Below are positions 11,856 through 13,143 of a DNA stretch of 64,000 bases, piece by piece. The stretch comes from Escherichia coli (lineage in GTDB: Bacteria > Pseudomonadota > Gammaproteobacteria > Enterobacterales > Enterobacteriaceae). The notes under the pieces were generated by a model. That model was not told where the DNA came from. It saw nothing but the letters and a program-made list of their open reading frames with translations, and did no database searches. The DNA is taken from assembly GCF_003334305.1 (NCBI RefSeq), contig NZ_QOWS01000015.1. One strand, 5' to 3'. Position 1 is the stretch's first letter. Every line of letters starts with the position of its first letter. A program made the translations under genes and the position numbers.

Positions 11856-13064
11856 GTGAAACGATTACAGGCATTTAAATTCCAGTTAAGACCAGGTGGT
11901 CAACAGGAGTGTGAAATGAGGCGCTTCGCAGGCGCATGTCGTTTCGTTTTCAATCGTGCTCTGGCACGTCAGAATGAGAATCATGAGGCCGGTAATAAAT
12001 ACATCCCTTACGGGAAAATGGCTTCCTGGCTGGTTGAGTGGAAAAACGCCACTGAAACGCAATGGCTTAAAGATTCGCCCTCACAGCCATTGCAACAGTC
12101 ACTGAAAGACCTTGAGCGGGCTTACAAAAACTTCTTCCGGAAGCGGGCTGCTTTTCCCCGATTCAAAAAGCGGGGACAGAATGATGCATTCCGCTACCCG
12201 CAGGGCGTAAAGCTCGATCAGGAAAACAGCCGTATTTTTCTGCCGAAACTGGGCTGGATGCGCTACCGGAATAGCCGTCAGGTCACGGGTGTTGTGAAAA
12301 ATGTCACGGTCAGCCAGTCCTGCGGTAAGTGGTACATCAGTATTCAGACAGAAAGTGAAGTATCCACTCCGGTTCACCCTTCAGCATCAATGGTCGGGCT
12401 GGATGCTGGCGTGGCTAAACTCGCCACGCTGTCAGATGGCACAGTCTTTGAGCCTGTAAACAGTTTTCAGAAAAACCAGAAGACGCTGGCGAGACTTCAG
12501 CGACAGTTAAGCCGCAAGGTCAAATTCAGCAACAACTGGCAGAAGCAGAAACGCAAAATACAGCGACTGCATTCCCGTATCGCAAATATCCGCAGGGACT
12601 ACCTTCACAAAGTCACAACGACCGTCAGCAAAAACCACGCAATGATAGTCATTGAGGATTTGAAGGTCAGCAACATGTCAAAGTCAGCAGCGGGTACGGT
12701 CAGCCAGCCGGGGCGCAATGTCCGGGCAAAATCAGGTTTAAACCGTTCGATACTGGATCAGGGCTGGTATGAAATGCGCCGCCAGCTTGAGTACAAGCAG
12801 CTCTGGAGTGGCGGTCAGGTGCTTGCTGCTCCGCCAGCGTACACAAGCCAGCGTTGCGCGTGCTGTGGTCATACAGCGAAAGAAAATCGCCTGTCACAAA
12901 GTCAATTCAGATGCCAGGTATGTGGATATACAGCGAACGCCGATGTAAACGGCGCTCGTAACATTTTAGCGGCGGGGCACGCCGTTCTTGCCTGTGGAGA
13001 GATGGTGCAGTCAGGCCGCTCGTTGAAGCAGGAACCCACCGAAATGATTCAGGCGACAGCCTGA
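11856..13064 (+). CDS. tnpB: IS605-family TnpB (OrfB), RuvC-like RNA-guided endonuclease, GTG start
   Basis: 402 aa; RuvC-I GLDAGV, Ruv[11 protein letters not shown], Ruv[15 protein letters not shown]; CxxC...CxxC zinc finger (CACCGH...CQVCGY). Confidence 0.92.
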
Positions 13065-13077
13065 ACGTAGCAGGGAT

Positions 13078-13097
13078 CCTCGTCATTCAGGGCGTGG
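13078..13097. repeat. IS right-end subterminal imperfect hairpin
   Basis: CCTCGTCA-TTCA-GGGCGTGG, similar to the left-end hairpin; 10 nt from the inferred right end (TCAA). Confidence 0.55.
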
Positions 13098-13107
13098 AGG
13101 ATGTCAA

Positions 13108-13143
13108 GACACGGAAAACGAACATGATGTTTGTGGTTGGTAA
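13108..13143 (+). pseudogene. yoaG: Orphaned 3' fragment of yoaG (codons DTENEHDVCGW + stop) displaced by the IS
   Basis: In-frame continuation of the recalled YoaG C-terminus immediately after the IS right end. Confidence 0.7.

Follow-up and report, generated by a model that had tools for sequence, protein, structure and literature searches.

A complete IS609 copy at the 3' end of yoaG in Escherichia coli, with an intact TnpB and a predicted flank-guided omega-RNA

Does the transposon that interrupts yoaG on the Escherichia coli contig NZ_QOWS01000015.1 (assembly GCF_003334305.1) carry a complete RNA-guided nuclease system, and would the guide of that system point back to the gene in which the transposon sits? 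The stretch analysed, 64,000 nucleotides (nt) long and referred to here as the window, holds at 11360-13107, on the plus strand, a complete 1748-bp IS609 of the IS200/IS605 family. We consider it very probable that this element was inserted at yoaG by its transposase TnpA and that it encodes TnpB together with an omega-RNA, guided by the flanking DNA and aimed at uninterrupted yoaG. An initial annotation of the same letters had proposed an intact TnpB and a guide taken from the yoaG flank.

All 1748 bp of the element align with the IS609 annotated in E. coli K-12 MG1655 (NC_000913.3, 1503161-1504908), and 98.2% of positions are identical. Both ends coincide, and the similarity to K-12 breaks off exactly at CCGGTG... 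on the left and ...GGATGTCAA on the right. The host locus is the E. coli chromosome, with dmlR, leuE, yeaR and yoaG upstream and yeaQ, yoaJ, yoaK and dgcP downstream. The insertion point is at the 3' end of yoaG, directly 3' of TTAT (11356-11359). In the empty yoaG allele CGTTCTTAT is followed directly by GACACGGAAAACGAACATGATG, the junction being TTAT/GACACGG; in the filled site the element lies between TTAT and GACACGG (13108 onward), with no target duplication. The right end of the element is exactly 13107 (...GGAGGATGTCAA) and the flank GACACGGAAAACGAAC begins at 13108. This boundary is fixed because the sequence is co-linear with the annotated K-12 IS609 and because the uninterrupted allele runs from CGTTCTTAT straight into GACACGGAAAACGAAC. 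Subterminal imperfect hairpins at both ends, the lack of terminal inverted repeats, and tetranucleotide-specific insertion without duplication, all traits of the IS200/IS605 family, are found here. The yoaG insertion is an ordinary copy of a catalogued E. coli insertion sequence. The features that define it are as follows.

11356-11359, plus strand: TTAT, abutting the left end; target and cleavage tetranucleotide, and predicted transposon-adjacent motif (TAM)
11360-13107, plus strand: IS609, co-terminal with the K-12 IS609 and delimited by comparison of filled and empty sites
11376-11395, plus strand: left-end subterminal hairpin CCCCGTCC-TTCA-GGGCGGGG, TnpA recognition element, from the sequence and from compensatory changes in the left ends of relatives
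13077-13098, plus strand: right-end subterminal hairpin, counterpart of omega-RNA stem 4, loop UUCA, from the K-12 comparison
13104-13107, plus strand: TCAA, right-end cleavage tetranucleotide, part of the invariant GTCAA of the right ends described below

Both proteins of the element match named protein families. TnpA scores 142.8 bits against NCBIfam transpos_IS200 (cut-off 55) and matches TnpA structures of the IS608/ISDra2 type with E-values of 1e-17 to 1e-19, the HvHLl motif and the C-terminal Y of RQYIEQQ being aligned. TnpB scores 384.8 bits against NCBIfam guided_TnpB (cut-off 100), and a phmmer comparison with solved structures places TnpB residues 3-376 on ISDra2 TnpB (8H1J, 8BF8/8EXA) with an E-value of 2e-55.

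11417-11848, minus strand: tnpA, Y1 HUH transposase, 143 amino acids, intact, from NCBIfam transpos_IS200 and matches to solved structures
11856-13064, plus strand: tnpB (InsQ), 402 amino acids, intact, from the open reading frame, NCBIfam guided_TnpB and the ISDra2 TnpB structures
12396-12410, plus strand: RuvC motif GLDAG (D183, 12402-12404)
12651-12665, plus strand: RuvC motif IEDLK (E267, 12654-12656)
12933-12962, plus strand: third RuvC motif, 10 residues (D363, 12942-12944)
12855-12926, plus strand: zinc finger C334/C337/C353/C356 in two CxxC pairs, CACC(G) at 12855 and CQVC(G) at 12912

The three RuvC motifs and the CxxC...CxxC finger claimed in the initial annotation are thus borne out by their coordinates, by the guided_TnpB score and by the ISDra2 alignment. 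No catalytic substitution relative to characterized TnpB was found: D183/E267/D363 fall on ISDra2 D191/E278/D361, and the zinc finger is likewise aligned (ISDra2 positions were counted by hand from the phmmer alignment, allowing for a 2-residue tag offset in 8h1j). Across 38 representatives of 39-61% identity the catalytic residues and the four cysteines show little or no variation, and TnpB keeps all residues that are invariant in the family.

Two observations on the genes stand apart. The start codons of tnpA (ATG, minus strand) and tnpB (GTG, plus strand) lie head to head, 7 nt apart (window 11848-11856); therefore the promoter of each gene has to be within its neighbour unless transcription enters from outside, e.g. 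by read-through from yeaR-yoaG. Codons 257-262 of tnpB (window 12624-12641), ~320 nt upstream of the scaffold described next, form a block, (A/G)TC AGC MAA AAC CAC GC, that is almost invariant at synonymous positions, with a codon identity of 0.87-0.97 vs 0.49 gene-wide in 80 TnpB genes of 58-85% protein identity. A promoter, a slippery site, a processing site and a pairing partner were each considered for this island, and none was supported.

Comparative analysis of the 3' end of tnpB and the right end supports a conserved, structured RNA-like element that overlaps both. Relatives were taken from 11 plasmid loci and from 80 genomic loci with TnpB 58-85% identical, the proteins coming from a 50%-cluster search; a direct search for homologous proteins gave near-identical E. 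coli proteins only, unusable for covariation. A profile of 12955-13107 matches a homologous block at the 3' end of tnpB in nearly every fetched locus. The predicted structure is listed below, with negative positions counted from the right end (13107 = -1).

12961-13107, plus strand: predicted omega-RNA (right-end RNA, reRNA) scaffold, ~147 nt, from RNAalifold, covariation and synonymous constraint
12961-12964/13101-13104 (-147..-144 with -7..-4), plus strand: long-range helix, ACAU with AUGU, consensus model
12970-12974/12980-12984 (-138..-124), plus strand: small stem-loop, consensus model
12991-13034 (-117..-74), plus strand: k-turn-like, RAGATH-18-like module, from a sub-threshold match to Rfam RF03064
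12991-12995/13028-13032, 12999-13001/13019-13021 and 13004-13006/13015-13017, plus strand: outer, inner and tip stems of that module
13039-13040/13073-13074 (-69/-68 with -35/-34), plus strand: CC/GG pairing, consensus model
13044-13055/13058-13068 (-64..-40), plus strand: variable hairpin spanning the tnpB stop codon, consensus model
13077-13085/13090-13098 (-31..-10), plus strand: terminal hairpin with UUCA loop, consensus model

The RNAalifold consensus, from an alignment of 46 sequences, has 34 pairs, 27 of them with compensatory changes. When pairs of the RAGATH-18 type are added, giving a 42-pair model, 93.7% of cells are standard-paired vs 40-48% with the partners slid, and changes on both sides occur in 30 of the 42 pairs vs 15-22. 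The covariation score is 0.42 vs 0.07-0.11 for slid partners, and none of 500 shuffles attains the observed values. In held-out relatives the covariance model gives complete matches of 76-161 bits (E-values 1e-22 to 2e-50), 91.4% of cells pair and 32/42 pairs covary. Within the window the right end occurs once and no further copies of the element were found; the covariance model gives a weak echo at the left end.

Constraint on the coding sequence is seen over the same stretch. Synonymous-codon identity climbs from the gene-wide 0.49 to 0.7-0.9 over 12969-13061, the constraint being weak from ~12927 and strong from ~12969. The stem at 12970-12984 stays paired although the encoded peptide varies (AAGHAV, ERGYRL, KAGHAR). 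At pair 13000/13020 the yoaG copy has A-U, K-12 has A.C and most relatives have G-C; this compensatory A-U suggests an RNA fold that is still under selection. The initial annotation had drawn the scaffold over 12900-13107. Its 3' limit and its overlap with the tnpB 3' end and the right end stand, while by covariation and synonymous constraint the 5' limit lies at ~12961, 12900 being too generous. As a separate observation, the conserved C-terminal peptide motifs of the TnpB clade, ACGE ... VKQEP, are encoded where the RAGATH-18-like module has its two conserved strands (window 12990-13040), and it is probably the RNA, not the protein, that accounts for their conservation.

The Rfam matches to the RAGATH-18-like module are sub-threshold. 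RAGATH-18 (RF03064) matches the window at 29.5 bits vs a gathering score of 44.9 (E-value 0.006), with a shortened internal stem, and two relatives at 29.2 bits, likewise sub-threshold. HgcC (RF00062), with a threshold of 50 bits, scores 15.4 bits in the window (12997-13120) and 22-35 bits in relatives. Experiments have identified RAGATH-18 itself as the guide-RNA core of IS607-type TnpB (PMC11061315).

What, then, would the guide be? All 71 of 71 distinct complete right ends terminate in GTCAA, nearly all in ...GGAGGATGTCAA, and the flanks downstream are unrelated to one another. The scaffold thus stops at the transposon boundary and the next bases are specific to each copy, which fits the requirement of a flank-derived guide. 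This, together with the uninterrupted yoaG allele, agrees with the earlier proposal of a guide that starts in the yoaG 3' flank at 13108. The predicted guide is given with a length of 16 nt, taken from ISDra2 (PMC10097598).

13108-13123, plus strand: predicted guide GACACGGAAAACGAAC, yoaG codons 3' of the insertion point, counted from the first flank base after the right end

The TTAT-like left flank, previously put forward as the TAM, is TTAT at 11356-11359 and recurs: TTAT lies 5' of the left end at 8 of 9 distinct sites read individually, namely yoaG, K-12 ydcL-ydcO, gltX-yfeD, four plasmid sites and a Serratia chromosome. In the wider family it precedes 10 of 24 scored left-end matches; the closest relatives in other genera have TTAT, and more distant subfamilies have TTAC or TTGAT/TTGAC. 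At the occupied site TCAA, not TTAT, precedes the guide-matching DNA, which is the sole TAM-plus-guide match in the window, and this replacement should prevent self-targeting. A third IS609 site on the E. coli chromosome is the gltX-yfeD intergenic region (E. coli CUWW06), where the flank is TTAT, the predicted guide is GCTGATTCATCTATGT and tnpA is annotated as a pseudogene.

From these parts a sequence of events can be proposed. IS609 would have entered yoaG by 'peel and paste' insertion of a single strand by TnpA, 3' of TTAT. Transcription through tnpB would run on over the right end into yoaG, and host read-through from yeaR-yoaG, which has the same direction as tnpB, could add to expression. 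The last ~147 nt of the element (12961-13107) would fold into the omega-RNA scaffold, and the read-through transcript would be trimmed to the scaffold plus ~16 nt. TnpB would bind the scaffold, with 13108-13123 acting as the guide, and the complex would be expected to cut TTAT-GACACGGAAAACGAAC, i.e. any uninterrupted yoaG allele or the donor joint once it is resealed after excision. Repair by recombination with an occupied copy could then restore IS609, leading to retention or homing, and the occupied site would be spared by virtue of the TCAA that precedes its target. Targeting of the empty donor site by a TnpB that is guided by right-end RNA is established for ISDra2 (PMC8612924) and for Geobacillus elements, and transposon retention by TnpB has been described in the Geobacillus/Helicobacter pylori work (bioRxiv 10.1101/2023.03.14.532601). 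We infer transcription, processing, TnpB loading, cleavage and homing of the yoaG copy from these two sources.

The target of such a complex would be common in the species. Of 5426 complete E. coli genomes, 4859 have IS609-like sequence over at least 80% of the element's length, and the median number of matching places per genome is 2. The junction between the right end and yoaG is found in 1100 of the 5426 and the uninterrupted yoaG site in 4318; filled and uninterrupted sites together make 5418, that is, all genomes matching at all. One uninterrupted allele, read directly, contains TTAT and an exact guide match of at least 16 nt. In the insertion strains the last 11 codons of yoaG are replaced by 13 codons from the IS609 left end; the gene (window 11213-11401) encodes a 62-residue chimera, with the final 13 residues, PVRRKTPSFRAGI, derived from the element, and carries no pseudogene annotation.

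Several points weigh against an active, flank-guided IS609 at yoaG. No data on IS609/InsQ omega-RNA expression or activity were found in the searchable literature, and one study that purified an 'IS609' TnpB did not count it among strong trans-cleavers and reported no notable activity. In the promoter and terminator scan, promoter-like sites were less frequent than in shuffles, with none above chance for tnpB or the RNA. The Rfam search over the right end, which had been suggested as a check on the guide RNA, returned no family at gathering score in the window or in 20 relatives; RAGATH-18, HgcC and sot0042 alone appeared, all sub-threshold. Single-sequence folding is only marginally better than shuffles (12960-13107, z -1.66; 12880-13127, z -1.91), and the structure therefore rests on comparative data. 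The weakest part of the model is the long-range, pseudoknot-like helix 12961-12964/13101-13104, which is 95-99% paired, varies mainly on one side and has double changes (A-U/G-U/G-C) at one of its four pairs; it is mostly conserved rather than covarying. In the right-end hairpin of the yoaG copy, T13080 and A13085 stand where K-12 has A and C; both are mismatches that form non-canonical pairs and could lower TnpA or TnpB function relative to K-12. The covariation of the terminal hairpin is equally explained by recognition of single-stranded DNA by TnpA.

This last point raises the question of whether the entire covarying block could be a DNA signal, recognised by TnpA on the single-stranded top strand, with no functional RNA at all. 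TnpA of the IS200/IS605 family classically acts on substrates such as the terminal hairpin at 13077-13098 and the TCAA end; a near-identical hairpin stands at the left end, where the covariance model gives a weak match, and pairing that tolerates G.T suits top-strand DNA as well as RNA. However, IS608 TnpA requires only a hairpin region of ~50 nt, and both covariation and synonymous constraint reach ~100 nt further into tnpB, through the helices at 12970-12984, 12991-13032 and 13044-13068. These additional helices match the layout of the ISDra2 omega-RNA and Rfam families tied to TnpB guide RNAs, and the stem at 12970-12984 keeps its pairing despite a changing peptide. A DNA signal on its own is thus a very improbable account of the block. 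More room, if still not much, has to be given to a vertically inherited fossil, i.e. a copy whose genes look intact but which is no longer mobile or RNA-guided-active, because it is poorly expressed, silenced by the host or weakened in its right-end hairpin. Such a relic would suit one insertion fixed in 1100 genomes at 99.9-100% identity, the median of 2 matching places per genome, the pseudogenised tnpA of the K-12 copy, the two hairpin mismatches at yoaG and the lack of promoter-like signal. Yet both reading frames are full length with all catalytic residues present, and pair 13000/13020 carries a compensatory A-U where K-12 has A.C. The same right-end hairpin variant is also found in the gltX-yfeD copy, which differs from the yoaG copy at 32 positions, and the lineage has therefore transposed. 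Long persistence at one site is, moreover, also predicted by TnpB-mediated retention (bioRxiv 10.1101/2023.03.14.532601). We regard the fossil as unlikely on balance. Domestication of TnpB as an RNA-guided regulator or DNA binder, like the nuclease-dead TnpB derivatives, can be given hardly any credence. Nothing specific speaks for it beyond a guide that adjoins host genes (yoaG/yeaQ), whereas the RuvC triad and zinc finger are intact, the gene lies within a complete transposon with TnpA and both ends, and the guides differ at every insertion site.

Elements related to the yoaG copy, and scaffolds separated from their genes, were observed on other replicons. Derivatives of IS609 with tnpA deleted, in which left-end nt 1-62 are joined to nt 498 and tnpB, the scaffold and both ends are retained, occur on plasmids of E. 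albertii, Salmonella and Klebsiella; among the 2311 plasmid records that match the tnpB 3' end plus right end, 1200 are from Klebsiella. The Klebsiella plasmid NZ_CP133748.1 (locus L010, 1136-4331) carries related TnpB elements in tandem, a tnpB-only copy and then a tnpA-tnpB copy. A gene-less miniature element on a Moellerella wisconsensis plasmid (locus L012, 1918-2107) contains nothing but part of the left end together with the right end and its scaffold, and scores 76 bits against the covariance model. Phage P1 (NC_005856.1, ~61346-61497; locus L096, 1229-1380) and P1-like plasmids, with the IncY plasmid NZ_CP039843.1 (locus L011, 1992-2139) as an example, hold a gene-less, full-length scaffold of the IS609 type, which takes up the unannotated stretch from incA iteron 1 to the par promoter. 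This scaffold gives a 96-bit match over the whole covariance model, with several pairs broken. It is probably what remains of an old insertion, and in principle it could be loaded by host InsQ.

With regard to its meaning, the IS609 element and the mechanism are already known and the yoaG copy adds no new principle. As a native-host test case, however, it offers a clean polymorphism at one site, filled in 1100 genomes and uninterrupted in 4318, with which TnpB retention and homing could be measured on natural alleles of the best model organism for genetics. Rfam has no family for the IS609-clade guide RNA, and the covariation-backed structure could serve as the seed of one; the presence of a RAGATH-18-like module in an element with a Y1 transposase is modestly useful. 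A further and more tentative idea, which we hold to be possible but less than even, is that yoaG::IS609 is a standing polymorphism in E. coli of the natural 'gene drive' or incompatibility type. A nuclease-RNA pair programmed against a yoaG allele (TTAT plus GACACGGAAAACGAAC) that is uninterrupted in ~80% of sequenced strains would then be carried by about 20% of them. If active in its native host, the pair would bias inheritance at yoaG each time conjugation, transduction or transformation brings the two alleles together, and this would explain the long retention.

How does the yoaG copy compare with known systems? The nearest is the K-12 IS609 (insQ/ydcM with the tnpA pseudogene yncK), whose insQ is annotated as a 'putative RNA-guided DNA endonuclease'. 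The two agree in length, in their ends, in the TTAT on the left and in the divergent orientation of tnpA and tnpB. The K-12 copy lies at ydcL-ydcO rather than yoaG, and the predicted guides therefore differ; tnpA is a pseudogene in K-12 and intact at yoaG. The two copies also differ by the two substitutions in the right-end hairpin and the one compensatory change in the k-turn-like module. IS608 of H. pylori resembles IS609 in its Y1 HUH TnpA (E-value 2e-18 to 2a6m/2vhg), subterminal hairpins at each end, insertion 3' of a tetranucleotide without duplication and a right end that finishes in TCAA. The target is TTAC in IS608 and TTAT in IS609, and gene orientation also differs.

The ISDra2 analogy, on which the initial annotation had based its layout of the guide RNA, holds up well against the published omega-RNA (PMC10097598). 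By cryo-electron microscopy, positions -5..-3 of the ISDra2 RNA pair as a pseudoknot with -105..-103, a segment ~100 nt upstream; stem 2 links ~-35 to ~-84, stem 3 is flexible and stem 4 is capped by a UUUA loop (-20..-17; PMC10097598). The C-terminal tail of ISDra2 TnpB is disordered and dispensable, and is encoded by the region of the RNA scaffold (PMC10097598). ISDra2 (Deinococcus radiodurans; PDB 8H1J, 8EXA) and IS609 have in common an RNA, in IS609 a predicted one, over the tnpB 3' end and right end with the flank as guide, a central variable hairpin, a UUYA loop on the terminal hairpin and a TnpB C-terminal tail encoded by the scaffold; the pairing of guide-adjacent bases with a distant 5' segment in ISDra2 may have its counterpart in the long-range helix of IS609. 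They differ in the TAM (TTGAT in ISDra2, predicted TTAT in IS609), in the scaffold (116 nt vs ~147 nt with the additional k-turn-like module) and in gene order, tnpA and tnpB being co-directional in ISDra2 and divergent in IS609.

Among RNA families, the HgcC (RF00062) matches, in the window as in relatives, span the scaffold and run ~13 nt into the flank. The RAGATH-18 consensus matches the IS609 strands CCUGUGGAG...GUUGAAGCAGGAA nearly base for base, with an internal stem of 17 nt in the IS609 module vs ~44 nt in RAGATH-18. The partner transposase of IS609 is of the Y1 type, whereas the RAGATH-18 reRNA (ISFba1, PMC11061315) goes with an IS607 serine recombinase, and the predicted IS609 RNA overlaps coding sequence, unlike the IS607 reRNAs (PMC11061315). 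A k-turn module of the RAGATH-18 kind had previously been described for IS607-type TnpB alone; its presence in IS609 suggests that the IS605- and IS607-type guide RNAs have an ancestral core in common.

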